Assembly: GCA_965649765.1 (NCBI GenBank) | Contig: OZ287757.1 | Span: forward strand, 3,410,001-3,474,000 | From: Bispira polyomma | Lineage: Eukaryota | Reading direction: 5' to 3' | Length of the DNA: 64,000 nucleotides | Shown here: piece after piece, positions 10,301 through 63,520 of the stretch | Layout of the letters: each line of letters begins with the position of its first letter | How positions within the stretch are numbered: the stretch's first letter is position 1 | Notes under the pieces: model-generated | The model's database searches: none | What the model was told of the DNA's origin: nothing | Seen by the model: only the letters and a program-made list of their open reading frames with translations | Translations under genes and position numbers: made by a program

Positions 10301-11415
10301 GGAATTTATTTTCTGTACATGTTAGTAATATATGTTGTGAAATGTAAACAATTAGTTATTTAAAATATTTATAATTTTAAAACGTCTGTACATACGTAGA
10401 GAACATAGTGACAAAGTCACAAAAGCGCAAAAATATCATAACATATCAATCTAAGCAATATGCATACCACAATATACAGGACTGCAATGTCACTGTATGT
10501 GACTACCAACAAGAAAACTGTAGTATGGACAGTGTTAACAATAATGTATGATCCATCGATTAATAGATGAAGTGTACATTTTTATTACAACAAAATAGCA
10601 CCATATAAAAATCTGATAAGTTTGATTAATAAGTTCGATAAAAACATATTCCAATTAATACTCAGGATAATCCTGGTAACAAACAGGGCCAGTCAAAAAC
10701 CTAAACCTCATTGACAGAGGTAATAATTGACGATTAGAAGCAGTTCTACAAATTAACAACCATTATCAATAGTATTACAATTTAAGTGTGGTGTTCAAAA
10801 AACTAACCAAAATCAAATAATAACAATGACTCGATGTTGGTGTGATGAACTATATATAGGGTTCAGTTTAATCAGGAAATTAGTTATAACACAATACCAT
10901 CACCATTATTCATACAGTATTCACCATATATCATTCAATAACATATATATATATATATATAGTTATCCTTTATCAATTGTAAATATAAAACATAACCATA
11001 ATGTGACCCTGTGGTGGACCACATCAGCAATGACCACACAAATCAACCGAAAAAAGTACAACCTCCAAGCTGCCAGCTGCTGCGCATTCGCCTTCAACAA
11101 AAAATTCCAAAAATGGGGACCTGGGTGAAACGAGAGTTATGAGAGTAGTGTCTTGTATCTTGCATATTTTGCTCAAGCCAATGCTATAAAATATTACCTT
11201 AAACAATACTTTTACAAACCCAATTTCCATATAATCCTAATAACAGTAAAGTTTATTTACAGACATAATTTACTGCATATTTATATGAGACAAACTTAAA
11301 AAATGTAAGCAATCGTTTCAAATTTATTTTTTGATCTTCTTTGCATTATTCAAGGTTCATTTTGCATATTGTTTTATTCATGCTTTACCAATAAGTAACA
11401 CGAAAACTTCAGCCT

Positions 11416-12428
11416 GATACATTAAATTATTGAAGCAACAGCTGATGCCCACTGTACCAAAACAGGGCTGTGAAAGTTAAAAACAGGGAATTTGTGTTTG
11501 CTTTGTGTATAGAATAATACAATACTAAGGATATATTTGTGGATATAAGGTAATTGCATTCCACTCAGCACTATGCAATAGTATTATTTAAAAGTAATGA
11601 CGGAAATAGCCAGAGCTTTTCCATAATCATACATACGAAAATAAGGCAGACATCTGCAGTCAGTTCAGAAATGTTTAAATGCCAGTTAAAATTAGGAATG
11701 AACAAGCCCACAAAATCATACAAAAAACCTTAATATATGTATCTTACCTTAATATATCAAAACCACAAAAAAACTTGCACTATTAGAGCCTAAACTGTTT
11801 ATTTGTCCTATATTGTAGACCACAGCTCCCTACCACTTCCAAGATTAGCTTATCGACACATTAGAGAGCTTTAAAGAGCTCTATTTGCATTATAAAATAG
11901 CGATGCGTAGGTTCCAGCAAAGTTACATCATTGCTATAAAAAACTAATACATAAACCCATTATGATTAAGTATTTTTTCTTGCTCAATAGAAGTTTAGAT
12001 CGTGTAAAATATTTATGTTAATTAGAAGCATTTATATAGTGTTAAATTTGTGCAAATTTTAGCTGATGTAAAAGTGCATATCATATAAAATCGAAGCTAA
12101 GGTTATATAAGTCTGTTTGACTGTGAAAAGACTTAACATGGGACAGGGTATACACAAAATATACAAAAAAATATATAAATCATAATAACAATGTCTGAAC
12201 TTTTAAACATATGTAAAATTTACATATAAAATCATATACAATATCACTATAACACCCCTAAATATTTTCAGTAGCTATTCATATATTACAATTATAACAT
12301 TAACTAGTCAGTGCCAACAGTTACAACATTTAAAGATTGTGGACAAACATGACCAATCATAAATTCATTGGAGAAAACAACCAAACACAAAAAAACTGTT
12401 TTATGGTTTGGTTTGGGAGAACACTTAA
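11416..12428 (+). repeat. ~1 kb dispersed repeat, copy 1 (copy 2 at 37812..38836)
   Basis: Collinear similarity from aattattgaag to tttgggagaacactta in both places, same orientation, visibly diverged. Confidence 0.8.
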
Positions 12429-20200: not shown

Positions 20201-23200
20201 CTGTTCTGATTTTTTTATAACTCCTTTATTAGTTGTGTTATGACACAAGACATGTTGAAAATAACGTTGAACACAAACACTAAACTGACTTTCTCTGACA
20301 AACTTTTAGATTTATTGTGATTTTAATGATGCTTTCAATAAAGGACAGTTTTTTTTCGTGGGCCAAGTATTGATGTAGCTGTTCAATTTAAAAATGACCT
20401 GACAACGGATAACAAATATCATCAACAAGGCCTAATTATCTAGATGTCATCCATATAAAGGTCAAACATATGTATAACCAACCTTGATGCATAATGTGTT
20501 CTATCATCTAAAGCTTTTGCCAATTCTGCCTGCAAAATGACGGCATGATCATCTTTCTCTTTCAACTGACCATATGCATATGTCAGTTTTTGCTGAAGTT
20601 CTTCTAATCTAAATGTACAGACTTAAAAATTTATCCCTTAAAAGATTGAGTCACAGGGTAAAGGAATATATTGTGAGAAAATATCTGAATACACATATGT
20701 CTTACATTAAGTTTGACATTATGTCTATTTTAGACAGAAAATAAATCTGAAACATTGTATGCAGAAGCTACTAAATGTATTTGTACCAAGCTGCAACTAG
20801 AAATTGGGTTAGTAACATAAAAACAATGCATCCATGAAAGACCAGTGTGAAGTGTCGAAGAAATAATTATTGCACTAATCAACATTCCTGTAAAATCCAA
20901 AATTCCTGATAGCAATCAAAATGAAAAAACAAAGATGGTCGTCAAATTCAAAATCTTTTTGAAAAGTTGCTGTACACATATAGCTACTGAAAGCCATTTA
21001 ATGGCTGCAGACATGGAAGACATACTTTGTTACCTCTACATCACCTACCCCCTTCCATTTATGTCAGATACTATTTTCCTAAATGTTTTGAGCATATTTA
21101 TCCATCATAATTTCTACAACAAAGATAAAACTAAGATGATAACATCACACGGCATTGCATTTAAATTCATACTTGTATTATTATACTCATAATTTATACT
21201 CATATATATCAACCTTTGTTTGGCATTCAAAATTCCAATTAACCTTTTCTGGATTGCTAATGGGAATGGGAGCCAATGACGGAAGACACAATGATTTAAG
21301 TGGTAATCCGAGAAACTATGTATCCAAATAATTTGTATTCCTAAACTGGTGTGTTTACTAGGTCAGAGCAGCAGATATAGATAAAATTATGTACTTTGTT
21401 GATGGTTATATTAATGTTACGAAATCCATTATCAGTATATTTTATTATATAAACAGACCTTTCTTGGATGTCTTTCTTCTGGTGTGTAGATTGCTCCAAT
21501 TCTTTCTCAAGATTATTTATCTTGTCCTGTGATTCTTCTAAATGGCTGCCTGCTGGTGGACAGTGTTGATCGTTTATTCTAGAGAGCATATGGAGACTTG
21601 ATATTTTTACAGCACCATCGCAATATAATTAAATAATACACATAAAATATCGCATGATAATATTATCTAAGGATATTGTATTTCTTGATTTTGATTGATA
21701 CATATATATAATCATGTTTTATAAAGCAGTAAAGGTCACGTATCTTTAACGATTAATGCTTAATAGTGTTGAAATTACATTTTAAGGCATTATGTTGTGT
21801 ATAAAAAGCAAACCTGCATCTGCAGGACCAAACACAATTTTTTCGACCCTAAAAAAAATGTTCCCAGAAATTGAAAAAATATGAAAAAAAGTATTATCGG
21901 TAATAGGTTACACATAGCTGGAGTTCCTAAAACGCATACCACTTCCTGCATTCACAAACAGGCTTGCATATATTTTTCAAAATGGGGCAATTTTCTGAAA
22001 GGAAGCAGTTTCTTACATTTACAGTAATTAAAATATTTGGCCAATGTCGGCCGGGAAATGTTGGCTGAAAGGGAGCTTAGACTAACCCAACTCAAAATAT
22101 GATGTAACTAACCCATCTCAATATATAATGTAACTAACCAAACTTAATATATGATGTAACTAACCCAACTCAATATATGATGTAACTAACACAACTCAAT
22201 AAATGATGTAACTAACCCAACTTAATATATGATTTAAATAACCCAACTTAATATATGATGTAACTAACCCAACTTAATATATAATGTAACTAACCCAACT
22301 CAATATATGATGTAACTAACCCAACTTAATATATGATGTAACTAACCCAACTTAATATATGATATAAATAACCCAACTCAATATATAATGTAACTAACAC
22401 AACTCAATAAATGATGTAACTAACCCAACTTAATCTATGATGTAACTAACTCAAATCAATATATGATGTAACTAACTCAACCTAATATGTAATTAACCTA
22501 ACTCAAAATATGATGCAACTAACCCAACTTAATAAATAATGTAACTAATTCAACTCAATATATGATGTAACTAACCCAACTTAATATGTAATTAACCCAA
22601 CTCAATATATGATGTAATTAACCCAATTTAATATGTAATTAACTCAACTCAATATATGAAGTAACTAACCCAAATCAATATTTGATGTAACTAACCCAAC
22701 TCAATATATAATGTAACTAACCCAACTTAATATATGATCTAACTAACCTAACTTAATATATAATGTAACTAATTAAACTTAATATATGATGTAACTAACC
22801 CAACATAATATGTAATGTAACTTACCCAACTTAATATATGATGTAACTAACCCAACTCAATATATGATGTACGTAACCCAACTCAATATATTTGTTAATT
22901 AACAGAACTCAATATATGATATAACAAGACAAGAGGAGAATGGCCTGGCGGCCATATCATGATAATGCCACTACAAAGCAAGTTACTGACGAGTCTGGAA
23001 ATAGTGAACCAGTCACTAGTCAGCGATCGAAATGGATTTCGAGAACCATCTACTGTGGGTACCCAGTTTGGTAAAAAGGCAAAATTCAAAGTAAAATCTG
23101 AAACATATGTATAGACAACCGAATCACCTTAAAAAAATGTTTTGATAATTTATGTTTCACATAAGTATTTTGTATCCCCACACACATTTTTTAGCGCTAC

Positions 23201-26200
23201 ACTGGTACACTTAGTTCAATTATAATTGTTACCAAGCAAAAAAAATATATTTCCTGCCATCAAAAACCATCCATTGAATCTAAAATTTACTCCTGTATCT
23301 AAAATTCACCACCCCTATGATTTAAGCCAAATAAATAAAAACTGGCGAAAAATAACTGGTAAGGAAGGCAAATTATTCATAAAAATATTAGTTTAAGCAA
23401 ATATTTACCCCAATTCTACCCAAAACACAACATTTTCTAGGTTGCAAATTTCAGATTGTGGCAAATTTTATATTCCTTACAGCCACAGCCACCCATTAAC
23501 CAAAGTATGTATATATAGGTTATATATCTTCCCAAACCTAATGTTTGTCTTGTATATTATATATTCCTTTCGAAACCATTTCAAATGGGCTGTAATGGAA
23601 CCTTTAATCAAATCTGAGGATCCCAATATTTAAAAGCTAAATACCTTCTATACTGCATATATTCACACCAAATTAATTTTGGACCAACTAGAGACCAAAA
23701 AGTGTATATATACCAAATTCAAGAGCATAACTCCCTACAGATTCAGAGATTACCCTGTTGACACGTTGTAACCATGTGTAACCAAGGTTCTTCCACTATA
23801 ATTGGATTTCGAGAACCATCTACTGTGGGTACCCAGTTTGGTAAACCAAAGGCAAAATTCAAAGTAAAATCTGAAACATATGATATTGTTTAAACCTCGA
23901 AAGTATTACTAAATATAACTCACTGGGCCATTTTTGGTAAATTCCCTGTTGCAGGTGAACAAAGGTCTGAATTTGAAATTGTTATGGTAGTTCCACGAGC
24001 TGAAATTACATAAAATATAACATTACCGTAAATGGCGTGCATCTTGTAACTATTCACTTAAATATAGTTTCATGATTCAAAGTATCAATAAGCATTTGTA
24101 TCTCTATTTCTCTGTGATTTACTTGAACTGAAACTAAATTACCTAAAGTGAAATGTTTATTGATCAGAGACCCTCTCTTATCCAAGTGAGTTGGACATAA
24201 ATCCTGATGATGTAAGAGTTGAGAAGCGGTATTTGCTAAGAAAAAATATCCTAGTGTATATGTATGCATTAATTACTTCTAGGGATTTCCGATTTAACTA
24301 AACTGTTGAGTGACCGCCTTTTGATCGGCAGGTCCATGGATGTAAACCTGCCAGAGGTATTAGCTTCGATTTTAATATTACAATCCTCAACCACCAGGTA
24401 AAATATTATAAGGGTTGAGGTTTAAAAACAGTTCAGCGCCCATATTCACTAAAGTTCTTATACTTAGAATAATTCTTATACTTAGAATAAGAATCATTCT
24501 TATACTTAGAATAAGAATCATTCTTATACTTAGAAAATTTTCCATTTTAATAATTTTGTTATTCCTATTCTTAGATTAAGAAATTTCTTAACTAAAAATT
24601 GTAAAAAGCAATACATAAGAATGCCAGGGGCCGTATTCACTAAAGTTTTTATACTTAGAATAAGACTTTTTCATGTTCACTAAAGTTGTCATACTTAGAA
24701 TAATTCTTATACTGAGAATTATGCTTAGAAAAATTCTTATACTTAGAATTTTTGCTTATTCTTAGAAAGTTTTCTAAGAATGAGCTTTGATTCTAAGAAT
24801 GGGAAAGACCTTACTTAAGTTAAGAAAAAAACATGGCATTCTTTATGTAAGAATAGCTAAGAAAATTCTTATTCTAACTATAAGAATAAAAAATTCTTAG
24901 AATAGAAAATTTTTTAAGCATAAGAATGATTCTTATTCTAAGTATAAGAATGATTCATATTCTAAGTATAAATATGATTCTAATTCTAAGTATGACAACT
25001 TTAGTGCATATGGCCCTATGTCTTTTTCTTAACTTAAGTAAGGTCTTGACCATTCTTAGAATTAAAGCTCATTCTTAGAAAATTTTCTAAGAATAAGTAA
25101 AAATTCTAAGTATAAGAACTTTAGTGAATACCAAAACTTCTTATTCTAAGTATAAGAACTTTAGTGAATACAGACCCAGGTATTACCCACCCAGGATAAG
25201 CCGGGTTAACCTGTACTGGGGAATACTTGGTAATACTTTCAAAAGTGAGCAATACTCTAAAAGGCTGGGTAATACTGCGAAAGGTTGGTCATACTAAAAA
25301 GAAACCTTGAATAATAATGTATATTTTTTTTTAAATATTTATTTACATAAGTCGATGAGAAAGATGTTTTTTCCCGACAAGTTATAACTGTTCAACAATT
25401 TATGGAAACTAATGAAGGGTTAAAATTCTGCTTTTATATAATTGTTGTTAAAAGATTAAAGGCCACAGTACTGAAGTAGGAATGTCTCTAATGTGAGATG
25501 GTGTAATCCCACATAAAATATGATATGAAAATTATCCTGTAACAGAAAGTATTTGCCACTTAGCTCAGGTAAGTCTAAGGTTTCACTATAATAAGTTGTT
25601 ATGGTGGGCTGACGCCCGTGCGACAGCCCCCCTCAGTTCTGGTGGCAGGTCACTGGGAGGCTAATTAAGCCACCTGGGGTCACGGGGGCAAGTATAAAAG
25701 GGATTGCCGCCAACAGGCGCCATCATTAGTGAAAAACAGTTCTTAGATACAAGTGTTTTTACAATTGGGGTTTTTACTACCCAGGGCTTTTACTACCCAG
25801 ATATTGTTTTACATTTTAGTTGAATGTGTAGTCATGCCTAAGGAATACCCGTGTAGTGTATGTTCTGGTCGGCACGGACGTCCAGTTGGGAAGAAATGTA
25901 AATTTAATCCGTTGGACAGCGTCGCTGATGAGGTGGCTGCCGTTGATCCTGCTGTGCCTGCTGTTTCTGATTCCGTATCTAGTTTGATACTTCAACAACT
26001 GGTTGTAATGAATGAGAAGATGGACAGCATGGATCAACGAGTACAAGCTACTGAGGCGGCGCTGTGTAAACCCAGCGCCCAGGCATGTAACACAGTTTCT
26101 AAACCTGTATCTAATGTCCCTAGTGTTAGTGAACCAGTGATTGAGGCCGTTGTGCCCTCCCTAGATTACCTGCGTTCAAATTCCAGCTTACAAAGTCAGG

Positions 26201-29200
26201 TAGACCAGCGGTTGCTGCAACTGCAACAACTCCACGATTTAACGGGAGGTAAACTGAAATCCCAAAGAGGTGGCGCGGAAGCGCCCGTTAAACGTCATGT
26301 TGATTGGCCACAAAATTTTGTCTTGTCTGGTGTAAAAAAGGTTAGGCCCACTTACGATGACCTTACTTTGGTACAGTTCGTTTCCGGCTTTGTTCGCTGT
26401 ACGCAAGAGCAAAAAGACTCCTCGGTCCGCGAGGCTATGTTGGAATATCTGGCATGCCTGATGGATGACGCCCATGATTTTTCGTGGGACGCCGCCAAAG
26501 CCGCTCACGCCATTTTATTGACCAACATGGAAATGGACCGATTGAACTGGACAGATGTCGAAAAGGTCGACCGGATACGCCGCGCTCATGCACAGCGTCA
26601 TGTAACGTCCTCAGCTAGTGGGTCTGGCCTTTCTAAAAGCAATATTGGCAGTAGGGGTAAAACCTCGGTGAAAACAGTGGGAGTAAACTGTCGATTCTTT
26701 CAGGAAGGCACGTGCAAATTTGATGCCAGCCATCGCACTTCTGGACAGTGGTTCAAACACTGCTGTGAGAGCTGTGGTGGCCCGCATCAAACCAAATTGT
26801 GCTTCAAAAAATCGGCCGCAAAAAACTAAGGGGCCACTGCAGTAGTGCAGTGGCTGCTAAGAAACTTGTACGTGAAACCTGCTCCAGAGTTGTATATAAT
26901 TCTACTTTTAGGGATTTTAAACTGTTTGATCATGTGTGTTGTAAAGATAATATGTATACTGGACCCCGACTTAACAGGTCATACCGGGACGTGTTGCAAC
27001 AGGGCCTTGTGGTTCCTGGTATCGAGATTGGTGAAAACCGGGAAATGGGGACAGTTAACCCTATGTCTGTTAATAAAGCCCCACAAGGTAGTGTGTTCCA
27101 TAATACCGCATTACACAAGTTGTCGGGAGGGAGGCATTCACCCGTGGAAGTGTTAAATACACCCGCTGACAGGCGACGTGAGAAAACAATTCACCAAAAG
27201 GTGTTAAGAAAAACACCTTTGGGTGGTGTGAAAACTTCTGTGAATAGGCGGGTCGGTAACCATGCAAACCGGGTGTTACAAAATCAACCAATTGTGTCCA
27301 AAACAAGTAAACTAAGTGATGGCCAAGGCGGGCCTAGACGGTTGGGTTCTCTGAGTGTGAAAACAATTGGCGCGGGTACCACTTCCAGTAATGCTAACAA
27401 TAGTGGGTTTCGCCTTCCCCTGCATAACCGGTTTAGTGGCCTAGACATTCCTGATGTAGAATTTCCTGAATCTGTTGACACGTTGGGTAAGGTCGATTTC
27501 ACACCTATTCCACTTCTTGACTCGAGTGACACGTTGGGTAGGGTCGATTGCACACCTATTCTACCACCTGACAAGAGATCTAACCCGTGTGATGACAAGT
27601 ATGTACTGGACCTCTCAGGAGGCCTTGATAAGAGACAGCGCTTAAATGCAGCTAAAGATAATGTGACCTACAAGTTGTGGGATATACAGAATAGTGGGAA
27701 GTATGGGTTCATACCAACTAGTTCCTGGGGTAACCCAGTGATTGATAGCTCCAATAACCAATTGATCACAGATGTGTTTACACTACATAAGGCCCTTAAA
27801 TTGGATGGGAGACCAAATTATAAGGGTTTACAAGTCCCCATACATACCCAACTGACGGTCCCTGCCTGGGAAAAGTATTTAGCTAATTATTGGGATTGGG
27901 AACTCCCCTTACTGATAAAATTCGGATTTCCTCTTGACTGTAATGAAGAACATGACTTCAAGTCTGACTTGAACAATCATGCTTCAGCCAAGCAATATCC
28001 TGAGCATGTGAATCATTACCTGAAAGAAGAATGTTCTATGGGTGCTATGTATGGACCTTTCGTCCATCCCCCAATTGATGATGTGCACACATCTCCATTT
28101 ATGACTAGAGACAAATCAAGCTCGGTTAACCGACGAGTTATAATAGATCTCAGTTGGCCCATCGGTCATTCGGTTAATGCAGCTGTGTCATCAAATTCGT
28201 ATTTGGACAAGGAATTTGTACTTACTTACCCTTCTATAGATGACATAACCCAACAAGTGTTGCAAAACGGTAGGGGCTCCTTGCTATTTAAAGCGGATAT
28301 TAGTCGCGCATTCCGTCATGTGACCATAGACCCCAGAGACATCAATCGTCTGGGCTTATACTGGGACGGCTACTATCTCGACGGCTCGTTGCCCTTTGGC
28401 TACCGACACGGTTCGGTGATTTTTCAGAGAATTTCTGACAGTATAAGGTATATCATGGAAGGTGAAGGTCATAAAATCACCAACTATATCGACGATCTCT
28501 TATGTTCTGCTGTTCCCTCGAAAATCTATGAAACGTACCACCGACTGCAGGCCCTTTTGGCCGAGTTGGGTTTGACTCTTAGCAAGAAGAAGCTGGTTCC
28601 TCCAGCCACCCGGGTAACCTGCCTAGGCATAGTTATAGAAACAGTTCGGTTCACTACATCCATACCAGAGGACAAACTAGCTCAGGTTCAAAAAATATGT
28701 GCCAGTTGGAGTGATAAAAAGCAGTGTACTAAGCGGCAGCTCCAATGTTTATTGGGTTCTTTGCTGTATATTTCCAAATGCGTGAAGTACTCACGATTTT
28801 TTCTGAATCGGATGTTGCAACTCCTCCGAAGCAATCACCACGAAACAAGTATCAAAATTAACCCTGACTTCAAAAAGGACCTTAACTGGTTCATTCAGTT
28901 TCTCCATAAGTACAATGGGGTGACATTTTTTCATCATGCCCCCATCACTGACATTGTAGAGTTGGATGCCTGCCTAACAGGCATGGGAGGAGTGTATGGC
29001 AAACAAGTATATTACCTTCCCATTCCTGCTGCTATGCACAAACATAATATTGCTTCATTGGAGATGCTCAACATTCATGTGGCTTTGAAGTTGTGGGGCA
29101 AATACTGGCAGGGACGTAGACTGTTAATTAAATGTGATAACCAGGCTGTTGTGAGTGTCCTTACGCATGGTAGAACTAGAGATAGCGAATTAGCCCTGTA

Positions 29201-32200
29201 CTCGCGGAACATATTCATGCTGGCTAGCCAGCTCGATGTAGACATACAGGTCGTCCATATTCTAGGAAATAACAATACCACCGCTGACCTCTTGTCTCGT
29301 TGGACAAATTCAAGTAAGGATAATGTTCTCTTACAGGAGCTGGTGGGCGATGTCCAATGGTGTGCCGTGACAGAGGACCACTTACTGCTCAATCACCACA
29401 TTTAGATATTCCTTGTCCGGTTGCATGCTATTATGTTCATCAGCCTTTACAAATGTTACTTTGTCTGCTTGTGTTGTGTTATAGCTAGAACTCCCCTGCA
29501 GCAGTTATTATATCAAAATGCAACGAAGAAGCTTCACTTGGCCTTCTGCAGGTCCACAGACAGATCTTATACTGCGATGTATAGGGTGTACCAAGCTTAT
29601 GCATCCTTCTCGGATCTGCCTTGTGACCAGGTGACAGCTATTGATCTTCTTGCTTTTTTAGAATTTTTACACTTTAACTCTGTAAAACCTGCCCATATGG
29701 CTAATTATTTATCTGCTATTAAAACTAAGAGTATTGTATACAATGTGCCCATTCTTGCCTTCAGTGACCCTCGCTTGGCTTACTATCAAAAGTCTGTCCA
29801 ATTGGCTGCCCCCTTAAATGTTCAGCTCAAAAAGATTATAGACATACCTCTTCTGACGAGTATTGTCAATGTCTCCAACACCACTTACATGGGTCCTATC
29901 TTTACAGCTGTGTATTTGGTCAGCTACTTTTCCTTCCTCAGGTTATCTAATTTAGTACCCCATTCCTGTCTTCAGTTTTCTGCTTTGAGACATCTATCCA
30001 GGGCTGATGTCATGTTTCACAGGGACAAAGCTGTCCTTTTGGTAAAATGGTCCAAAACGATGCAGAGCAATAATCAGATTAGACTTATTACTATCCCACG
30101 CTTGCTGGGTTCTCCTCTTTGCCCTGTGGGGTCACTGCAGGCAATTATGGCTCTTACTCCGTCTGAACCTAATTCACCCTTATTTCAATTGAAAGACAAA
30201 TCTCACTGGGTTCCGCTTACGGACACCCGTGTCCGCAGGCATTTCAAAACGATACTTGCCAGGCTCCAGTTGCAGGATTCTGGCCTCACACTGCACGCTT
30301 TCCGACGTTCGGGTGCCACTTTTGCCTTTAACCATAACGTCAGCATTCAGAACATCCAAAAACATGGCACTTGGACGTCGGATTGCGTGTGGAGGTATGT
30401 TACCGACTCAGTGGATGCGGGACAGCAGGTATCGGACACATTTCGCCTTCATCTTGCTACTTCTTCTTCCTAGTTCCTACGTGCTGGGTTTGGGTGTTTC
30501 TACTCAAAATTTAGTCTATATTTCATATTCTAGATAATTATGTAATTTTTGCTTTACATGTAGTCACATACTAGTCATGTATAGTGTCATATAGAATTTA
30601 AATTACTATTTCACTTGCTACTCATTTCATGTTACAACTATAAAGTTAACTTCACAGAGTAGTGTTTTATTTCCTAGTAATTGTATGCTACAACTAGTAA
30701 TTCAACTTCATGAAATAACTGTTTCATTAAAAGGTAATACAATCTGTAATTAACTGAAAAATTACAACTTAACTCTTCTTCTATACATTTTAGGGTCACC
30801 TCAATTTGTAATTCCCTTATGGGTTAAAAATTTAGTATACTAACCTGTATTTAAGGTGATCTTTAGCCCCCCTTTTGTAGTATAAATTTGAAGATCATCT
30901 CCTTTTTAAGTACCCTACGGGCTTTGTCATTTCACTTATTTAAACTGTCTTGGGGTGACCTTATCTTGTTCTTTGAGGTTATGTAAAATATTTTATTACT
31001 TTCACTCAAATTAGTATGACTTAAAGTTACAAATTACCGTGACCTTAAGTCACGTTGTATATAGTAGTTTAACATAGACTAACAATAAAATATTTTACCG
31101 CATTCTGCTTACTTACTATCTTGCTTTCTTGACCTCTGACCCTTTGGCCTGTCACGCGGGAAATGTGGTGGGCTGACGCCCGTGCGACAGCCCCCCTCAG
31201 TTCTGGTGGCAGGTCACTGGGAGGCTAATTAAGCCACCTGGGGTCACGGGGGCAAGTATAAAAGGGATTGCCGCCAACAGGCGCCATCATTAGTGAAAAA
31301 CAGTTCTTAGATACAAGTGTTTTTACAACCCACCCTGTACCCTCCCATTTAACAGTTTGTTATAGTTGTAGAATGTCGGTGAAGTACAGTTCCATGGATC
31401 TCAGCGACGTCTGGACCCTTATGGTGTAGCTAGCTGCTTGTGCTCCGGTGGTTCTGATCCTCAATCATTGTGTTAAGTAGGGGGCTATATTACTTAGCCA
31501 TGTAGGACATATGGAAAGAGCTAGATAAGGATCTCTGTAAATAACCCAGTCTAATGGTTTACCACTGGATAAGGCCTAAGGTTAAGCGCGCATGGACCTG
31601 GATTTTAACAGAAACGAACATTTACGTAAAGGGTCTTACTGCTATGCGACTTTTAGCTAAGCACAGACTTTTCTTTTATATAACGGATTTTACTTTTATA
31701 CTTTTACCTTTACGTATGTCTTGCAGACTAACTTATAGCATTCTGTGTACTGACTTTTCTTTTATGTAACGGATTTTACTTTTATACTTTTACCTTTACG
31801 TATGTCTTCCAGACTAACTTATAGCATTCTGTGTACTTACCTGCGTGTAAGTCTTCTTTTAACTATCCTTTATGTGTGTTACAATTTTATATATATAATG
31901 GGTGTTTCTACTCAAAATTTAGTCTATATTTCATATTCTAGATAATTATGTAATTTTTGCTTTACATGTAGTCACATGCTAGTCATGTATAGTGTCATAT
32001 AGAATTTAAATTACTATTTCACTTGCTACTCATTTCATGTTACAACTATAAAGTTAACTTCACAGAGTAGTGTTTTATTTCCTAGTAATTGTATGCTACA
32101 ACTAGTAATTCAACTTCATGAAATAACTGTTTCATTAAAAGGTAATACAATCTGTAATTAACTGAAAAATTACAACTTAACTCTTCTTCTATACATTTTA

Positions 32201-33667
32201 GGGTCACCTCAATTTGTAATTCCCTTATGGGTTAAAAATTTAGTATACTAACCTGTATTTAAGGTGATCTTTAGCCCCCCTTTTGTAGTATAAATTTGAA
32301 GATCATCTCCTTTTTAAGTACCCTACGGGCTTTGTCATTTCACTTATTTAAACTGTCTTGGGGTGACCTTATCTTGTTCTTTGAGGTTATGTAAAATATT
32401 TTATTACTTTCACTCAAATTAGTATGACTTAAAGTTACAAATTACCGTGACCTTAAGTCACGTTGTATATAGTAGTTTAACATAGACTAACAATAAAATA
32501 TTTTACCGCATTCTGCTTACTTACTATCTTGCTTTCTTGACCTCTGACCCTTTGGCCTGTCACGCGGGAAATGTATGTCACATGTTGTTTGTTTACTGGT
32601 CTCTTGATTGTGACATATTTCGCTTGGGGTCAATATGGTTAGGTCGCAAGAACAGAGATGTCACCCGCCAATAGGCCTACTCGATGTCGAGCCCACACGA
32701 CACTTGAAACTCATGAGGCATGAGGATGCTTATTTTATTGTGATTACTGTGCTTTTTTTTCTCCATCAAAATCCGTTAACAAAAGGCTCAGATGTTTATG
32801 TTTATTTAACTTCCTCTTTTACTATGATTAATACATCACAGCAACGTCATAATGACGTCAGTTTTGTAGCTACGTCACAACTTACACAAAAGGGGATAAC
32901 AATGGGTACCCATCTATAAACTTTAATATATGAGCTATTTTTTAACAGATTTGATGAAAAAACAACAGCACAGTAATTACAATAAAATAGGCTTTCTCCT
33001 GCCATTTTCCAAGTCACTATACCACAAATTTTTAGTGTATATCGGATGAAAGGAAGCACAACGTCGGCCTATGTCGGATTGGATCGATCAGACACCTTTA
33101 AATGTGCTGAAAGGAAGCTTAGGCTTATATTTCTGGCACAAAAATAAATATGTACTTACCACTATCAATTTCACCTGGTTTCTTGAGTGCTCCCAATTTA
33201 GACTTCCCACCTGTATCCTGATTTTTTTCCTGTTCATTGTTTTCCTGCGTAGTTTCTGACATTTCCCCACAAGGAGCATTGCTTCCATTTTTATATCCCT
33301 CCACTGGTGGAGTATGCCCAAAGGTATCCAGATCTTTCTGGAGACCCTGTTGTATAATAGGAGCCATTTGTAGGAAAGTCTGCATATCTGACTTTATCTT
33401 GTTACCAAGGCCTGATTCAGATTCTGCAGAGTAACTTAAAGACACATCAGAGACAAACTCCTTCATATAGTAAATCTCATCTATATCAGTTTTTTCATGT
33501 TTCATGTCAGATTCAAGCAGTTGTTTTAGCTGTTTGCAGTGTGCTGTAAAATCTTTAGCCCCTTTATAACAATCAGTGTGGTCCTCAGCACTTCGGTATT
33601 CTAGTGGTAAAACCAGAAGGTTCTTACAAACTGTCTCTGTCTGCTCCTTGCTTAATCCAAAAGCCAT
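14211..33667 (-). CDS. Coiled-coil protein with MIEAP/SPATA18-like C-terminal domain, 10 coding exons, ~556 aa
   Basis: join 33667-33160, 23999-23924, 21578-21459, 20608-20483, 19241-19116, 18187-17983, 17693-17589, 16557-16420, 14995-14881, 14362-14211; all GT-AG, phases match, total 1671 nt with one terminal TGA. Motifs RLSKEMG..NIENIS..HRP...Y..F...W.EAKEAL, LAWKMIVQRPPM and YVFPSLYHGKSVMVKGTV resemble the MIEAP C-terminal domain (recognised from memory, not searched). AATAAA at 14138-14133. Confidence 0.8.
15600..16200 (+). mobile_element. Degenerate L1/Tx1-clade LINE ORF2 fragment (post-RT region), intronic
   Basis: GKITVINTLMLPK...IPN...IQEINTIFYKFIWDDKLDKVSR matches the GKITVIK..LPK...FIW..KPDKIKR pattern of Tx1/L1 ORF2; stops and frameshifts around it; boundaries approximate. 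Confidence 0.7.
16630..17460. repeat. Probable non-autonomous repeat with degenerate internal subrepeats
   Basis: Recurrent aa(g)atggc/gcc-aaaatt and tcgcacc/atttct motifs; boundaries approximate. Confidence 0.4.
22081..22920. repeat. Minisatellite, 26-bp unit (taactaacccaact[c/t]aatatatgatg), about 32 copies with some shorter variants
   Basis: Directly visible head-to-tail units with no unique spacers. Confidence 0.95.
23033..23882 (+). repeat. Pair of ~78-bp near-identical direct repeats (23033..23109 and 23803..23882)
   Basis: tggatttcgagaaccatctactgtgggtacccagtttggtaaa...atctgaaacatatg occurs twice, differing by a 3-nt indel. Confidence 0.9.
24436..25176. mobile_element. Palindromic AT-rich MITE (nested or compound), PIF/Harbinger-like
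   Basis: Ends cgcccatattcactaaagttctt / aagaactttagtgaatacagacc flanked by cag on both sides; inner ends gggccgtattcac (~24628) and gtgcatatggccc (~25016); many tcttatacttagaat subrepeats in both orientations. Related ends at ~8390, ~48474, ~52417. Confidence 0.7.
25602..25764 (+). repeat. Element 1 repeat A1
   Basis: Identical by eye to 31166..31328. Confidence 0.95.
25693..25727 (+). promoter_or_regulatory. TATA box plus initiator inside A1 (copied in A2 at 31257..31291)
   Basis: TATAAAAG at 25693; TCATT initiator-like motif with its A at 25725, 32 nt downstream. Confidence 0.65.
25834..26829 (+). CDS. gag: Gag-like ORF1 of element 1 (331 aa from first ATG)
   Basis: N-terminal C-x2-C-x3-H-x7-C motif, coiled coil, RPTYDDLT..QFVSGF core shared with element 2, C-terminal Cys/His cluster CRFFQEGTC...H...HCCESCGGPH....C. 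Confidence 0.85.
   Translation: MPKEYPCSVCSGRHGRPVGKKCKFNPLDSVADEVAAVDPAVPAVSDSVSSLILQQLVVMNEKMDSMDQRVQATEAALCKPSAQACNTVSKPVSNVPSVSEPVIEAVVPSLDYLRSNSSLQSQVDQRLLQLQQLHDLTGGKLKSQRGGAEAPVKRHVDWPQNFVLSGVKKVRPTYDDLTLVQFVSGFVRCTQEQKDSSVREAMLEYLACLMDDAHDFSWDAAKAAHAILLTNMEMDRLNWTDVEKVDRIRRAHAQRHVTSSASGSGLSKSNIGSRGKTSVKTVGVNCRFFQEGTCKFDASHRTSGQWFKHCCESCGGPHQTKLCFKKSAAKN
26799..29405 (+). CDS. pol: Pol ORF of element 1: reverse transcriptase plus DIRS/Ngaro-type RNase H
   Basis: RT motifs FKADISRAF, LPFG, YIDD, CLG; RNase H motifs LDAC, LEMLN, KCDNQA, ADLLSR. Confidence 0.95.
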   Translation: MLQKIGRKKLRGHCSSAVAAKKLVRETCSRVVYNSTFRDFKLFDHVCCKDNMYTGPRLNRSYRDVLQQGLVVPGIEIGENREMGTVNPMSVNKAPQGSVFHNTALHKLSGGRHSPVEVLNTPADRRREKTIHQKVLRKTPLGGVKTSVNRRVGNHANRVLQNQPIVSKTSKLSDGQGGPRRLGSLSVKTIGAGTTSSNANNSGFRLPLHNRFSGLDIPDVEFPESVDTLGKVDFTPIPLLDSSDTLGRVDCTPILPPDKRSNPCDDKYVLDLSGGLDKRQRLNAAKDNVTYKLWDIQNSGKYGFIPTSSWGNPVIDSSNNQLITDVFTLHKALKLDGRPNYKGLQVPIHTQLTVPAWEKYLANYWDWELPLLIKFGFPLDCNEEHDFKSDLNNHASAKQYPEHVNHYLKEECSMGAMYGPFVHPPIDDVHTSPFMTRDKSSSVNRRVIIDLSWPIGHSVNAAVSSNSYLDKEFVLTYPSIDDITQQVLQNGRGSLLFKADISRAFRHVTIDPRDINRLGLYWDGYYLDGSLPFGYRHGSVIFQRISDSIRYIMEGEGHKITNYIDDLLCSAVPSKIYETYHRLQALLAELGLTLSKKKLVPPATRVTCLGIVIETVRFTTSIPEDKLAQVQKICASWSDKKQCTKRQLQCLLGSLLYISKCVKYSRFFLNRMLQLLRSNHHETSIKINPDFKKDLNWFIQFLHKYNGVTFFHHAPITDIVELDACLTGMGGVYGKQVYYLPIPAAMHKHNIASLEMLNIHVALKLWGKYWQGRRLLIKCDNQAVVSVLTHGRTRDSELALYSRNIFMLASQLDVDIQVVHILGNNNTTADLLSRWTNSSKDNVLLQELVGDVQWCAVTEDHLLLNHHI
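26820..26855 (+). promoter_or_regulatory. -1 programmed ribosomal frameshift signal (gag-pol)
   Basis: A_AAA_AAC in the gag frame directly before TAA, 6-nt spacer, perfect 9-bp hairpin gccactgca-gtag-tgcagtggc; pol is in the -1 frame. Confidence 0.8.
29485..30473 (+). CDS. Tyrosine recombinase of element 1 (frame open from 29421; probable splice acceptor at 29484)
   Basis: Catalytic set LRLSN (R), WSKT (K), HAFRRSGAT (HxxR), HGTW, VWRY (Y); LCPV motif. Confidence 0.95.
30491..31166 (+). repeat. Element 1 repeat B1 (AATAAA at 31084)
   Basis: Matches 31899..32574; one mismatch noticed (A30570/G31978). Confidence 0.95.
31166..31328 (+). repeat. Element 1 repeat A2
   Basis: Copy of A1, abutting B1 with a 1-nt overlap. 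Confidence 0.95.
31329..31898 (+). other. Element 1 unique non-coding spacer; candidate structured RNA; contains an 86-bp tandem duplication (31666..31837)
   Basis: Lies between A2 and B2; hairpins ggcta/tagcc and ccagt/actgg; homologous motif at 63401..63510. Confidence 0.6.
31899..32574 (+). repeat. Element 1 repeat B2 (AATAAA at 32492)
   Basis: Copy of B1. Confidence 0.95.
32715..33124 (-). mobile_element. Truncated copy of the MITE at 34784..35470, opposite orientation
   Basis: Reverse-complement match of the core (acgtcataatgacgtca...gctacgtcacaac); ends tgctgaaaggaagcttaggc followed by tta. Confidence 0.75.
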
Positions 33668-34783: not shown

Positions 34784-35470
34784 GCCTACGCTTCCTTTCA
34801 GCATATTCCGACGTCGGCCGATTTGTGTGTGTCCGACGTCGGCGGACGTCGACCGATGTAACGCTTCCTTTCATCAGATATATACCCAATATTCGTCGGA
34901 TGTTGGCTTTAAAAATGGCATAAGAAAGCTTATTTTATTGTGATTACTGTGCTTCTTTTTTGACAAAAATTCGTTAAGAAATGGCTCAGATATTAAAGTT
35001 AAAAGAGGGGTACCCATTTTTACTTGCTAATGTGTGAGTTGTGACGTAGCTGCAAAATTGACGTCATTATGACGTCACGGTGACGTATTATTTACTGCAG
35101 AAGGGAAGTTACATGGGGTACCCATCTATAACCTCAAATATCTGAGCCGTTTCTTAACGGATTTTGGTGGGGAAAAAGGCACAGTAATCACAATGAAATA
35201 ACCTATCTCATGCCATTTTCAATGTCACCATCTGACGAATATTGAGTATATATAAGATGAATACTATACCTATGATAGTATTTTTGAAGACATTTTTGTT
35301 TCAAAATCGGACAGTCTTCCCGATTTTTTCCCTCCCTGAGAGATAAAATATGTTGGCCAAACAGACGTCGGCCGACGTCTGATCCGATCTGATGCAAATC
35401 TGCTGAAAGGAAGCACTTGGTGGTATTGTATAATGAGGGGAAAAGCGTAGGAAGCGTAGGAAGCGTAGGC
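34784..35470 (+). mobile_element. MITE with long imperfect TIRs and TTA target duplication (PIF/Harbinger-like)
   Basis: tta|gcctacgcttcctttcagca ... tgctgaaaggaagc...gcgtaggc|tta. Confidence 0.8.
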
Positions 35471-37811
35471 TTACCTCAACACATTAGGACATAGCCATTC
35501 CTGCATTCTGTTCGGTGTCGTTTCAAGACCCTATTTGTTTAGACAACTTGTCTCTGTCATTCATAATTTTTTATATTTAAATTTATTTATTTATTCATAC
35601 ACAAAGTATAATATTACAAACACAGAATACATAAATGTTTTCACAACCAGGAACAAGGAACAATGTTATTATAGTTTCGCAATTACATTAAATTTTATAC
35701 AAATCTTTATGATGTACACAAACATTCTAACATATAATTAATCTCAGTATAATTAAATTTAGTATGATTTATCTCTTTAATCATAATAATAGACAATAAT
35801 AGATAATAAGATCTCTAATATTTCCACATATATTTCATCATCTGTGTTAATCTGAGAGTGAACATGTTTGTCACTTACATTTTTAAATTTTTGATGTGCT
35901 TTAAGAGCACATGTATAGCTACAATTGAGTTCCTTTGAAATTACATAAATATTTTTTTCCACATTGGAATGACTTCAACAAACACCCAGTCTACCAGCAA
36001 GTTTTACCAATTGTTATCACTGGTCAAAATTGTATGTTTAAATTTGTTGAATCTTTTATACAACCGCACATTAATTGGGACATCATTGTATACTAAATGT
36101 ATCTCTATCGTTTTTACTTTTGCATTTGAACCAATTATGTCATTATATGATTTAATGATTTTTTTCTATTTTTAGGGATTGGTATAACTGTTGATACAAG
36201 TAGGTCGCCAGGTGAAAAACAATGCTTTAACATAGAGATGTACAGTAAAATAGGATATACATATAATTTATGACAACCATGAATAATGACTTTATTTTGG
36301 CTCTCGTGCTTTTTATTAATACTAATATGCCCACATATAACACGGGAATACGTGTGATTTGGTTATCTTAAATATTTAATCACCATATATTAATATTTTA
36401 TATTAACATGCGTAATTTAATGTAAAAAAAAAGATGTAGAATTCTTCAGAAAAATTACTTTTTTTGTGCTTGTGTGTGTGTGTGTGTGTTTATTTCTCTG
36501 TGAGTCATATCAGTACACATAATAGCGTAGATTATAATACAAAAAATAAGCTGACGGTATATCTGACCAAAATAGTTCAAACGTTGGTTTAATGACTTTT
36601 CTTCTCTTTCTAAGTGAAATACAGCCTATAGTAGTTAAAACATTTTAGTGTTACCCATTGTATCTCCATAATTAAGTGTGAACTGTATTACTGTATCATA
36701 TATATGATGGCATTGTGATTGTTGACACCTATAGTCACTTAGTACGTTCTGAATCAACAAAATAATATTATCCTCTCATAAAAACCCCAGGATACTCATC
36801 TATTTACTTTACGGTCAAAAATATAAATTGTATCATATAGTACAAGGAAACAAACATTGACAAGCATATTAGTGATTGTCATAATTATTCTATCTATCAT
36901 TTTGATGGAAACAATTCAAAGGGGCACACTAATTCATCCTGTTGACTTACCTCTAAGTCCCAGTGAGTTCCGGCAAGTTTGGACACTCTATTCCTTTGCA
37001 TTGCTAGTAAAAAAATAAAGCAGTAAAGTCAAATAACCTGTTGTTTTTTTCTTATTTAGTATATCTAATATATCATTCCAGATATAAACCTATGTTCATA
37101 AATAATTAGTTTCCTTAAAATTGGTCACTTACATTTCGAATATCAGTTTGTCTTCTTCATCCAGTTCTGGTGCTTTATGGTGCAGCACTTGTTTGACTTC
37201 TAGACATCAGTCATACACTGGTGGTAATCATTACCAACTGTCATTGGATTATGTTTGAGACTAATGTTTTCAAGTTTACCAAAATATTACTTATTCTACA
37301 AGTATATTTAATTGTTTCACTAGTTTTCGTGCTACTACTAGTTTTCGTATTTTTTCTTTGAACTTTTTATTTTTGATCTTTATATATTCAAAAACAAATC
37401 TTTTGTTTCAGTCTAATGTTCGGGCCAAATTATGCGTTATTAAAGGTAATATCAAGGTTTATTTTGCATATTTTTTATTGACATTTTACTGATAACTAAC
37501 ACAAAAACTGCATTATATTATCTTAAAGTGTCTATTTAGATTATTGAAGTTTTACACTTCAAACATAACAAATTGCAATAAGCTAAGTCTGTTAAGTATG
37601 CAGTGATTTCATTTGTCGAGAAGACTTGTGCACGTGTACTGTACTTGTTGGATATTTTGTTGCTGTCTTCAAAGGGTGAAGGCAATTATTGATGTATTAT
37701 ATTATGGATGGCAGTAAAATTACCTTTGTTGTGCGTCAGCACTATATCTGGACGCATGTTTTTTGGTGTGAATGGTGTTGGGCATGCATTTTGTATTTCT
37801 TACAAGACACT

Positions 37812-38836
37812 CATACATCGAATTATTGAAGAAACGGTTGATGACCACCATAACAAAACAAGGCTGTGAAGGTTGGGAACAAGGAGCTTGTGTTTGCTTT
37901 GTATGTAGAAAAAGACAATAATAAGGTATGCATTATAGGATCTATTTGTAGATTTAAGGTAACTAAATTCCACTCAGCATTATGCAATAATATCGTTGAC
38001 GTTTGTCTAACAAGGAAATTAGGGGAAGTTCCCAATAATCATACATACAAAAACGAGGTAGACATCCGCAGTCAGTGAACAAATGTTCAAGCGCCTGTCA
38101 AAATTAGGAATGGACACACCCACAAAATCATACAAAAACCCTAATATCTGTATCCTATCTTAATCTATCAAAATAAAAAAAAATCATGCACAACTAGAGC
38201 CCAAACTGTATATTTGTCCTACAGGTCCCTACCACTAACAAGATTAGCTTGTCGAAACGTTAGAGAGCCTCAGAGAGCTCCAGTTCCGTAATAAAACAGC
38301 AATGCGTAACTTCCGCAAAATTATGTCATTGCTGTAAAAAATAGTGAATTATGTGTGACAACATTCATTGTGATTCACCATTATTTTTCTCAATCAAAAC
38401 TGAGATGCTTGTATAATATTTATGTTGATTAGAAGCATTTATATTGTGTTAAACTGGTGCAAAGTTTTACTGATGTAAAAGTGTGGATCACATAAAGTGG
38501 AAGCTAAGGCTATATAAGTCTGTTTGATAATGGTGAAACACTAAACATGGCACAGGGTCTACACGAAATATACAAAAATATACAGAAATACTAACAATGT
38601 CTGAACATTTAAACATATTTAAAATTTATATATAAAATTATGTACATTATTACTGTAACACCGCTACATATTTTTAGATGCCATTCATATGACAATTATA
38701 ACATCAAATAGTCACTGCCAACAGTTAAAACATTAAAGGTTTATGGACAAACGTGATCAATTATAAATTCATAGGAGAAAACAACTAAACAGAAACACAG
38801 TTCTGTTTGTTGTCTTGATTTGGGAGAACACTTAGA
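37812..38836 (+). repeat. ~1 kb dispersed repeat, copy 2
   Basis: See 11416..12428; homology stops where the element 3 remnant begins. Confidence 0.8.
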
Positions 38837-58710: not shown

Positions 58711-58716
58711 TTTTAG

Positions 58717-59681: not shown

Positions 59682-62600
59682 TTGGGCTTAACTTTATTTT
59701 ACCTCTCAACATGTATATAAACACTAACTTGTAGATAATAAAATCTCAAATGAAATCTTTTACTGCCTTCAACAATTTCACCTTAAACTTGCAAATTAAC
59801 TTACCACCAGTGGACTGTGCATAGCAAGTCCCCTTTAGGCGACTGCTAGTTCAGTCCACCATCCCTCTTATTATACTCTACCTTAAGACCCCCTAGCGAA
59901 TGCTACAGTATTATTCACTTCTCTTTCTATCCATAGCTACTAGCGAATCAAAGCACAGATCACCTGTGACCCTTAGCTTCACTAGCTATCCTCCATATTG
60001 TATTTATTATTTCACCTGTGAACAGGACTTTGTGGAAAATTCAACCCTCCACCTCCCCTTTACCACAGCACTTATCATTTATTCTAGCTTAAGGTTTCTG
60101 TTTAAATCCAAGGCTGCTATTTAATGGGGCGACAGAGTGGGTGCAAGCTCTGGATCCCGAGCCGTGTGATAGGGGGTCCGGGCTTCTTATTCCCTCCCCT
60201 AAGCAAACCACTGGGGTGCCAGGGTAGAATAAGGGGCTCTGAGAGCCGGTACCTGTCCCTCTGCTAGGCGATTAGGTGTCCAAGGCCCGGGGTCCTGTCC
60301 CCTCACCTGCTGTCTACCTGATTTAAACTTACATTTGTAGCTTTGACGCATGTTTTAAAAATTTTCTTGGCTTGATTGGATGGGTTGACATTAGACTCAC
60401 TTGGACATTACTTGTGGACAACATACATAGGTTTACACTGGAAATTACCCTGAGTAGGATTTTCCAAATGACCGATTTGACCTAATGTTAGAGTTCTAAA
60501 CCACAGGGGTGTGAACCCAACGTATTAGGTGTGTACATCTCAGGTACAAGATGCCTAATTCATGGCTCAAGATTGGCGTGATTGCACAAGGTAGTATGTA
60601 GTAAAATAAAACGGCAATATAGCATGTGTGGCTAAGGCCTGTTAAGTTATACCACTGCACGTATGCATTTATTTTACGTTTGTAGTATGCATTTTATTTA
60701 TGTTTTAGTTTATTAATGTAACGAGAAGTTTGGAAATTAAATACTCTACTGGTTCACCAGTTGTGACTAGATCTGTATCATTGGCCAGCTGTGCTGGTTC
60801 ATGGCATTGTAGGGTATATTATTCCTGTTGAGGGAAATGTTATGTTTCTAACACAAAGTTTAGTATGATCAAGGGTTCTATACTAGTCTTTAAATTTGTT
60901 TTGTTTATGGCTAGTCCTATTTTGTCGGTACCATTGAGGCTATTCCTCTGGTCAGTGTTAGCCTGTGTGGGGCTTAAAATTTTATGTTATAAAAATTTTA
61001 AGTTTATTTTACCTCTCAACATGTATATAAATACTAACTTGTAGATAATAAAATCTCAAATGAAATCTTTTATTACCTTCAACAATTTCACCTTAAACTT
61101 GCAAATTAACTTACCACCGGTGGACTGATGTACATTTCTGAACATACAAAGGAACACTAATGGAGAACATTAAGAAATAAAATATTTGCAAATTATGAAG
61201 AAAGACAAAACTTTATATACAGACAGGTTACCTATAGTTCAGTTGTAATGTATCTTACAAATAAATTAACAGATATGTAAAACATTAATATAGAGATTAT
61301 TTCTAGAAATTAGACTGCACATAGTTGATCTGACATTTAATTTCATTTACTTCAATTAAAATATGATTGTCTGGGAGCCCTCAATAAAACATCACCAATA
61401 TGTCAAGCTTTAATATCCTGATCATTGGTTTAACTAATATGTGTAGCAGTTCATCGCCCATTTCTTGAAATATAAAAAAAAGTATGACATTGTTTGAGTG
61501 GGAGAAAAATTATATAAACCAATGACATACAATTAAATGTACACCAAAGGTTACAAGTATAGATGGACTTTTACACAGTATTATTTCCGAATAATATATT
61601 TACATTAGAGAAGGTCCAGGTCTGTATAAAGATCACAGAGCACAGTGTTTTAATTCTAGTCATGTTTGGCATCATATCATGTTATTATTTTCATTATTTT
61701 AAGCTGTCCACACAACTCGCTCGCAAAGTATTTAATGAGATAATCCTATTATTGTCAGCTGCTAATTATGTCATTAGTTTATTTGCACAAGAGGTTATTT
61801 TTGTTGTAACGCCACATCATAATCAGTATTCAAAACAATAATCCGATAGGAGAAAAGGTTCCGGATTGGAGTTCAATCCTGATCAGCAGACAAATGTTAA
61901 GGCGGAAAAGCGAGTTTGTGTGGTGACATGGGGCAGCAGTCTCAGTCCAGTCGCGAGCTTAACTTTTTAATATATATAGCCAAACAAAGGCTACTAAAAT
62001 ACCTACCTGTTTTATCATTTAAAATAAACAAACAAAATCAATGGCTTAAATATATAAGGCAGGGATGAGAATGACTACAAGGCATTGAGGGCTTCTTTTT
62101 ACTTCCAAATTAGGAACTGAATTAACAACACTAACTGAATTTACCCATCCTCTTCCACCCTATATAAAATATTATTCCATGTATTCAACAGAAGTTATGT
62201 GTCACAAAGTGAGTTCATAAGGTTTATTCTTTAAGCTAGTTCTGCCTGGGGTCGTTATGGATTTTGGATTCTTAGTTTTTAATTCTGGTCTATGGTGTTC
62301 TGTATGAAGTCATTGTGGGTTTACTATGGTTTTGATCAGTATGGGGTGTGTGTTTATGCGTCACTGCACACAGCATTATAGTGTGGAATTAGTATCTTGG
62401 GTTTTAGTTTGTTGGAAGCCACACTTTTGGCAGTACATGTTTTGAAGCTCCAGTCTGTTGTTTGCAGGAAACTTCCAGCATTGAAGGTATTAGTTTAAGA
62501 TTGTTTCAATTCACACTAAAATTATATCCTAGTTATTACATCTATTCATATCACTGGTGATTGATAAACATTACATACTGTTACATATAATTACACAATA

Positions 62601-63159: not shown

Positions 63160-63520
63160 TCCGGCCCTGTGACATTATGTGGTTTTAGAATTTTTGTGGG
63201 TCGTAAAATGTGCAGAGCAACTGAGAAATCTGGTCACTAGTAGTGGGACGCATGGGAGATGGTAACTATTGGCAGAGTACTCAAGCAAGGACTATGATGC
63301 ATGTGCACAAAACTATTCAAGATGCATGATTATCTGATAACATGTTTATATATAAATGCTTTGCTTAAATAGTTAAAGTATCTCTTTAGGTAAGAAATTA
63401 GTTAACAATATGGGGCTGTATTATTTAGCCACGTAAGGAAATGTTACATGAGCTAGCAAGAGATATAAGTAATGATCAGCCAGTGAGATCTCCAGCATTA
63501 TACTGTAGGTCAGTTCGCTC
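63160..63520 (+). other. Orphan segment homologous to the element 1 spacer (possible remnant or non-autonomous Ngaro derivative)
   Basis: ggggctgtattatttagccacgtaagga...gagctag..aag.gat....gtaa......ccagt aligns to 31481..31550; weaker similarity from ~63160. Confidence 0.55.

Follow-up and report, generated by a model that had tools for sequence, protein, structure and literature searches.

Does the tail of a retrotransposon, which repeats the element's promoter and polyadenylation motifs behind all of its genes, make an RNA of its own, and what might such an RNA do? The question is raised by a locus of Bispira polyomma within a 64,000-nt stretch of DNA (the window), where an earlier note had read the segment A2-spacer-B2 as a self-contained second transcription unit yielding a non-coding RNA of ~1.2 kb. 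The segment is the normal duplicated tail of a Ngaro-type retrotransposon. Its anatomy and the need for read-through are already known; the new part is a conserved block in the spacer.

Anatomy of element 1 and its duplicated tail

Element 1 (25602-32573) is a young Ngaro-type retrotransposon with the order A1-gag-RT/RH-YR-B1-A2-spacer-B2. Its parts are as follows:

25602..25764, + strand: repeat A1, 163 nt, the element's left end, with TATAAA at 25693
25835..26829, + strand: gag-like ORF, both ends rich in Cys/His, 'gag' being assigned by position
26769..29405, + strand: RT/RNase H frame, matching RVT_1 (E 7e-8), RVT_3 and RT_RNaseH
29406..30473, + strand: tyrosine recombinase (YR) frame, matching Phage_integrase at E 0.0028, below the curated Pfam cut-off
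30485..30496, + strand: G-rich tract at the left border of B1, with no counterpart before B2
30491..31165, + strand: repeat B1, 675 nt, with AATAAA at 31084
31120..31234, + strand: B1-A2 junction, a predicted long hairpin, the same sequence as the joined element ends
31166..31328, + strand: repeat A2, with TATAAA at 31257 and an initiator-like A at 31289
31329..31632, + strand: conserved non-coding block, the first ~300 nt of the spacer, starting with a C-rich tract
31633..31898, + strand: remaining spacer, poorly conserved
31899..32573, + strand: repeat B2, the element's right end, with AATAAA at 32492

The three frames lie on one strand, with the internal repeat pair downstream of YR, and the sequence left of A1 is genomic DNA in relatives. 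The gag-like ORF has a weak Pfam match to zf_CCCH_4 (E 0.061); no methyltransferase match was found in Pfam at E<=0.1, and the RT/RNase H frame stops soon after RNase H. A1 and A2 are 100% identical, and B1 and B2 differ at a single site, 30570. The spacer between A2 and B2 measures 570 nt and carries, in the youngest copies, an 89-nt tandem duplication at 31663-31837. Throughout the family the B end falls at 31165/32573, one base before the end given in the earlier note (31166/32574). The G-rich tract at 30485-30496 is present in most of nine relatives and is a candidate second-strand primer site. Directly after A1, at 25765-25790, most of 10 relatives conserve a G-tract and TACTACC; a C-tract follows A2 instead.

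The layout A1-ORFs-B1-A2-B2 defines Ngaro elements (PMC8547959, PMC9210276, PMC4157794, PMC3783388, as far as their available text goes), and element 1 shares with them the split repeats, the internal pair after YR, the gag, RT/RH and YR frames and the lack of a methyltransferase. Element 1 is therefore of Ngaro type by layout, domains and the absence of a methyltransferase match, with the proviso, raised in the available text of PMC4157794, that layout features can be homoplasious. It differs in that its spacer, non-coding and 570 nt long, has a conserved block with covariation; in the available text of the same four papers neither a block of this kind nor a tail-less majority is described, and permuted copies are not counted. 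It also lacks the hydrolase ORF described for amphibian Ngaro elements in the portions available. With PAT-like DIRS elements it shares split direct repeats, and differs in that no methyltransferase was found.

The motif coordinates of the earlier note are all correct (TATAAA at 25693 and 31257; AATAAA at 31084 and 32492, and in element 2 at 59737 and 61047). The first base of AATAAA lies ~80 nt before the B end in both elements, and the initiator-like A at 31289 is 32 nt downstream of the TATA start. Such motifs are weak evidence by themselves because the AT-rich window yields them by chance (0.18 TATAAA expected per 163 nt and 0.81 AATAAA per 675 nt), and split direct repeats automatically copy a second TATA box and a second AATAAA. 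What exceeds chance is their positional conservation among aligned relatives: TATA(A/T)A stands 32-33 nt upstream of the initiator-like A in 23 of 25 (the two misses being one copy without A and one that was mis-anchored), and in 11 of the 13 with a matched junction the distance from AATAAA to the B end is 69-88 nt. The conserved positions are explicable by selection on A1 and B2 alone.

As had been proposed, A2 holds the entire conserved core promoter and B1 the entire polyadenylation region, and neither an A1->B1 nor an A2->B2 RNA would span the B|A junction, since within B-A the poly(A) site lies upstream of the start site, leaving a one-unit RNA without the junction. The claim of a core promoter in A stands for element 1, whose A carries the TATA box, and does not carry over to element 2 or a related family, whose A has none. 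The A2-B2 unit is indeed non-coding, its longest ATG-started frame being 71 aa. In the conserved block the longest stop-free frames are 28-65 aa and the frame varies (12 of 25 rows checked); a hidden spacer ORF was ruled out, with short frames only and none conserved. The idea that the junction hairpin masks the poly(A) signal of B1 found no support: the AATAAA of B1 (0.58) is predicted to be as accessible as that of B2 (0.60), and openness differs modestly and in the last 35-65 nt only. LTR elements and retroviruses duplicate their promoter and poly(A) signal, produce solo LTRs by recombination and carry a structured psi/dimer-initiation signal beside the repeat. Element 1 differs from them in that its poly(A) site comes before the start site within B-A and in having no integrase.

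Several other repeats occupy the window. An AT-rich, palindromic repeat made up of 24-nt units, its long arms inverted (24434-25184 and 8294-8337), adjoins element 1 on the left, and one family copy, L096, sits in the same repeat type. On the right, nested long inverted repeats that are 74-86% complementary (32717-33075 with 34845-35261) are possibly a non-autonomous DNA transposon. The segment 45210-46150, a very high-copy repeat with tRNA-like words and a contig depth thousands of times that of single-copy sequence, is probably a SINE. There are also a 26-nt satellite (21937-23053), a 147-nt tandem repeat (6791-7382) and a dispersed repeat pair of about 80-87% identity (11414-12391 with 37810-38795).

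A conserved, foldable block at the start of the spacer

The block at 31329-31632 is 74-81% identical to its counterparts in six distant subfamilies. For YR four-fold sites the identity is 36-46%, and for the remaining spacer 62-67%, against a shuffle baseline of 55%; in all six comparisons the block is more conserved than the four-fold sites. Its identity resembles that of A (76-87%) and of the B end (76-83%), and the 5' 548 nt of B are merely 58-67% identical between subfamilies. These comparisons show that the block is under purifying selection. It starts exactly at the end of A2 and is 307-320 nt long in the first ten copies aligned.

An alignment of 25 rows, from which near-duplicates and partial hits were excluded, suggests the following fold:

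31371-76/31618-23, 31444-52/31561-69 and 31456-61/31528-33, + strand: predicted helices of the block
31483-87/31495-99, + strand: predicted hairpin; 31541/31560, + strand: predicted pair

Among all column pairs, the two that covary most are Watson-Crick pairs within predicted hairpins. The pair 31484/31498, in the small hairpin, is GC in 13 rows and AU in 12, with at least five changes on the tree (E about 0.03), and 31541/31560 is AU in 17 and GC in eight, with two changes (E about 0.17); both E values come from a custom tree-aware null of 40 simulations. Compensatory changes beyond phylogenetic expectation are thus suggested by one pair outright and tentatively by a second, and are weak elsewhere. 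A six-helix model, built by hand from the very alignment on which it was scored, pairs 92.6% of 812 cells, compared with 28-44% when partners are slid. Two-sided changes occur in 6 of its 33 pairs, and two of five shuffle measures were not exceeded (145/500, 334/500). Few pairs carry weight because most paired positions scarcely vary. RNAalifold retained 16 pairs over the 25 rows, and no excess folding energy was found on either strand (single copy z +0.87; mean +0.46 over 13 of the 25 rows).

Of the 25 rows, 19 preserve an 8-nt palindrome at 31428-35 without change, and 23 a complementary hexamer at 31519-24. In the modelled fold the palindrome could pair with 31519-24, as a pseudoknot, or with a second molecule; these pairs show no two-sided change and no covariation in the 25 rows. 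By variant type the wobbles show no strand preference (14 G-U, 12 A-C), so that folded single-stranded DNA is as possible as RNA. Counted by cells on the + strand they number 65 G-U and 27 A-C, with 25 of the 65 belonging to one invariant pair. Pairing of the C-rich tract with G-rich tracts was considered and dropped, being overall no better than shuffles.

Element 2 (53968-61127) is degenerate: it contains stops, and its pol bears a 153-nt duplication. It retains AATAAA and lacks a TATA box in A; its relatives have ~30 extra bases at the start of B1. Its spacer holds a comparable feature:

60157..60297, + strand: analogous conserved foldable block in the spacer of element 2, between A2 (59816-60044) and B2 (60998-61127)

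In one comparison within the element 2 clade this block is 76% identical, with 27 of 56 four-fold sites and 59% of the rest of the spacer matching; across 10 rows, both partners have changed in 7 of its 51 predicted pairs. No homology to the block of element 1 was detected, including by a search with the element-1 profile.

The earlier proposal that the spacer is functional non-coding sequence rather than filler finds support in the selection on the block and in the covariation. Rfam 15, ribozymes included, gave three matches (E 0.96-5.8), none of them inside the block. Beyond the source genome, four metagenome motif matches were taken as chance, all being without YR or wider similarity. A search of the openly accessible literature found no structured Ngaro spacer described and no transcript mapping for split-repeat elements; the available text of PMC9940879 has nothing on TOC1 transcripts. 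Within the window, 63409-63471 is a remnant of the spacer block (the portion with the hairpin and AGCTAG) from a third, decayed element (nhmmer E 9e-6; covariance model E 8e-8).

Full, short and solo copies in the genome

Exact-motif and similarity searches yielded at least 80 loci, all of which were retrieved; the counts are lower bounds. Eight of the 80 were set aside as distant subfamilies, and the 72 family-1 loci kept comprise 22 full copies, 34 tail-less A-ORFs-B copies with a clean end (short copies), 2 solo A-spacer-B copies, 6 copies cut at the 5' side that keep the tail and 8 further fragments. Short and solo copies are the DNA counterparts of the two RNAs envisaged in the earlier note. 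In a second family, related to element 2 (A 224, B 154) and with coordinates taken from the first 100 listed matches per motif, there are among the matches listed 43 tail-bearing clusters, 9 short copies, 8 solos and 16 single hits; all 17 short and solo candidates there were confirmed (8/8 solos).

Full and short labels are mixed on a tree built from 54 of the 56 such copies (two short ones, each lacking a segment, were omitted), with 15 label changes against 17.4 when shuffled. In the youngest clade 3 of 13 copies are short, compared with 29 of 41 in the rest of the tree (p 0.004, for a clade split picked after inspection of the tree), and the short fraction by terminal branch length (4/12, 11/16, 10/17, 7/9) shows a weak trend (p 0.09). 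The short:solo ratio is 34:2 in family 1 (A 163, B 675) and 9:8 among the matches listed in the second family (A 224, B 154; Fisher p 0.0008), a difference that follows repeat length. Reciprocal products of unequal exchange exist as well. One locus (L092), whose pol carries a 633-nt triplication, has its tail in tandem, A-spacer-B twice, and a pair (L282/L283) has a tandem coding unit, A-ORFs-B twice, followed by a tail. Since labels are scattered, proportions depend on repeat length and age, and reciprocal tandems occur, the short and solo copies fit homologous recombination after insertion, between B1 and B2 or between A1 and A2. Among the 12 copies on the shortest terminal branches, four already lack the tail, and reverse transcription may thus account for some of the short copies; no fixed B1/B2 markers for tracing the origin of short copies exist in 22 elements. 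Assembly collapse as the source of tail-less copies is disfavoured, the youngest and most identical copies being least often short.

In family 1 the contig depth of the spacer is ~0.6-0.67 that of YR (X1/X3, 395/590 and 307/510; X2 noisier and lower), a ratio that speaks weakly against such collapse, as contig depth is not copy number. The three sequencing runs cover single-copy DNA evenly, at ~14x, ~14x and 50-75x, and behave as DNA. Four loci (L149, L150, L148, L113) have element ends rearranged in inverted orientation, and two of them, L149 and L150, lie 10 kb from each other and consist of duplicate A-gag fragments placed head to head.

The picture of A2->B2 as a self-contained, self-propagating unit found no support in the census: solos are few, are interspersed with full copies and vary in frequency with the length of A. 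Free-standing A-spacer-B copies occupy 2 of the 72 family-1 loci and number 8 in the second family, among the matches listed. On a tree of 9 solo and 8 full units (two further full units were dropped as incomplete) the labels change 7 times, compared with 5.9 when shuffled, in a small sample. The solos thus do not appear to form a self-amplifying lineage. In Cafeteria, solo AB units are attributed to recombination in the available text of PMC8547959. The SIRE of Trypanosoma cruzi, which corresponds to the A2-to-B2 region of VIPER and has no target-site duplication (PMC6681497, PMC12278014), has its origin and mobility stated as an open question in the available text of both papers. SIRE has a middle of ~30 bp and is counted as a repeat family, whereas the middle here is 570-870 nt with a conserved block, and the solos here are few and not self-amplified.

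The repeats and insertion sites bear on replication as well. In 22 elements B1 and B2 differ at 0-8 private sites and at no site shared between elements, and no recurring A1/A2 difference was found in 20 elements. Because B1 equals B2 while the 5' part of B diverges between subfamilies, we infer that B is copied or corrected from one template along its whole length. At both informative insertion sites (L112, compared with neighbouring satellite copies, and L137, compared with one paralogue; L096 was ambiguous) the flanks join gapless and without target duplication, which rules out a 2-nt duplication and makes the internal junction equal to the joined ends. The predicted fold of that junction has z -3.8, compared with -1.1 for B2 plus flank. 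Over loci L091-L170, the left flanks have T at -3 in 42 of 63 and A/T at -2 in 63 of 63, and the right flanks A/T at +1 in 59 of 62 as scored; these bases are a target preference without duplication. No circularly permuted copy occurs among 45: family 1 contributes 22 full copies to this count, and the second family 23 ABAB clusters, among the matches listed. A symmetric circle would leave half of the insertions permuted, and the intermediate would therefore seem to treat its two junctions differently.

A proposed signal within a read-through RNA

We postulate, with confidence evenly divided, that the folded block acts in cis within a read-through A1->B2 RNA, marking that RNA for packaging or priming. 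Two RNAs would start in A1: an mRNA that terminates in B1, and a longer transcript that reads through to B2. Of these, the longer one alone would contain the folded block together with the B-A junction, on which the promoter and the element ends would be templated, and it would be the sole replicating RNA. Strand transfer from one repeat to the other would restore A1 on the pattern of A2 and B2 on that of B1, and an asymmetric intermediate would leave the recombinase to use the new junction only. An RNA begun in A2 would be a by-product or decoy, and A-ORFs-B and A-spacer-B copies would mostly stem from B1/B2 or A1/A2 recombination after insertion and would be dead ends for replication. DIRS-1 of Dictyostelium resembles this scheme in its incomplete transcript, in ends rebuilt from an internal junction copy that is essential, and in integration by a YR; it differs in its inverted repeats, internal complementary region and methyltransferase, where element 1 has split direct repeats (PMC7192593, available text). 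With regard to replication, the earlier note had named read-through of the B1 signal or cooperation between RNAs: the former agrees with the known layout in its simplest reading, and two-RNA cooperation is required by no result.

Perhaps, though we think it unlikely, the block works in trans, with A2 an active promoter whose ~1.2-kb non-coding RNA would prime the long RNA, dimerise with it or aid its packaging. No base of A1, which works beside arbitrary flanks, is missing from A2, and the block, of near-constant length, lies right behind this complete promoter copy, so placed that it would occupy about +40 to +345 near the 5' end of the short RNA. It also contains a near-invariant 8-nt palindrome of the retroviral dimer-initiation kind. 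Palindromes start RNA dimer formation in retroviruses; there, a downstream promoter copy of the 3' LTR type is often occluded by upstream transcription, which counts against a working A2, as does the A of element 2, without its TATA box. Solo units exist, as the SIRE/VIPER relation in the available text of PMC6681497 illustrates, but those in this genome do not amplify. Moreover, the short RNA lacks the junction, so that read-through would still be needed, and the read-through RNA already has the block. A role in DNA seems to us less probable again: the block might be a fold of single-stranded cDNA, an accessory recombinase site, which would make the two B-A junctions unequal, or a control of read-through or of A2 silencing. 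The strand ambiguity of the wobbles, the lack of excess RNA folding energy, the strong predicted junction hairpin and the asymmetry called for by the absence of permuted copies (0/45, the second family among the matches listed) are all consistent with it, as is the largely linear, single-stranded cDNA of DIRS-1 in the available text of PMC7192593. Against it, a large number of one-sided changes leave a G-U pair on the + strand (65 cells to 27 A-C, 25 of the 65 being one invariant pair), and the block shows, by informal look, no likeness to repeated protein-binding boxes.

The short copies admit a further reading, which we regard as slightly more doubtful still, namely that A-ORFs-B copies are reverse transcripts of B1-terminated RNA, or products of template switching by RT between B copies. 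Their ends would then have been rebuilt from a partner molecule, as the DNA footprint of RNA cooperation. They are numerous (34 of 72 loci), have clean ends and are in some cases nearly identical to the youngest full copies, and retroviral RT deletes direct repeats of 701 nt at high frequency (PMC3187697, available text). The rise of the short fraction with age, its scaling with B length between families and the reciprocal tandem products, as predicted by chromosomal recombination, speak instead for recombination after insertion. It is tempting to go further, and to speculate that a pseudoknotted RNA device behind A2 primes or packages, is delivered as the ~1.2-kb A2 RNA, and makes Ngaro a two-RNA retroelement; this we consider a long shot, and if true, the device would be the missing primer of the DIRS order.

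How priming occurs in the DIRS order and how the genomic RNA is chosen are an open problem (the primer of DIRS-1 is not known, according to the available text of PMC7192593), and the replication model for split-repeat elements is built largely on sequence comparison. The census constrains any such model, which must account for B1/B2 identity along the whole length and for the use of one of two identical junctions. With regard to whether SIRE-like solos are mobile or remnants, those described here look like remnants. A 300-nt block with named predicted helices and a palindrome is, in turn, a direct target for probing and binding tests. We postulate that this block serves the read-through RNA as its mark for packaging or priming, and may thereby help to set apart the one RNA from which the element would replicate.
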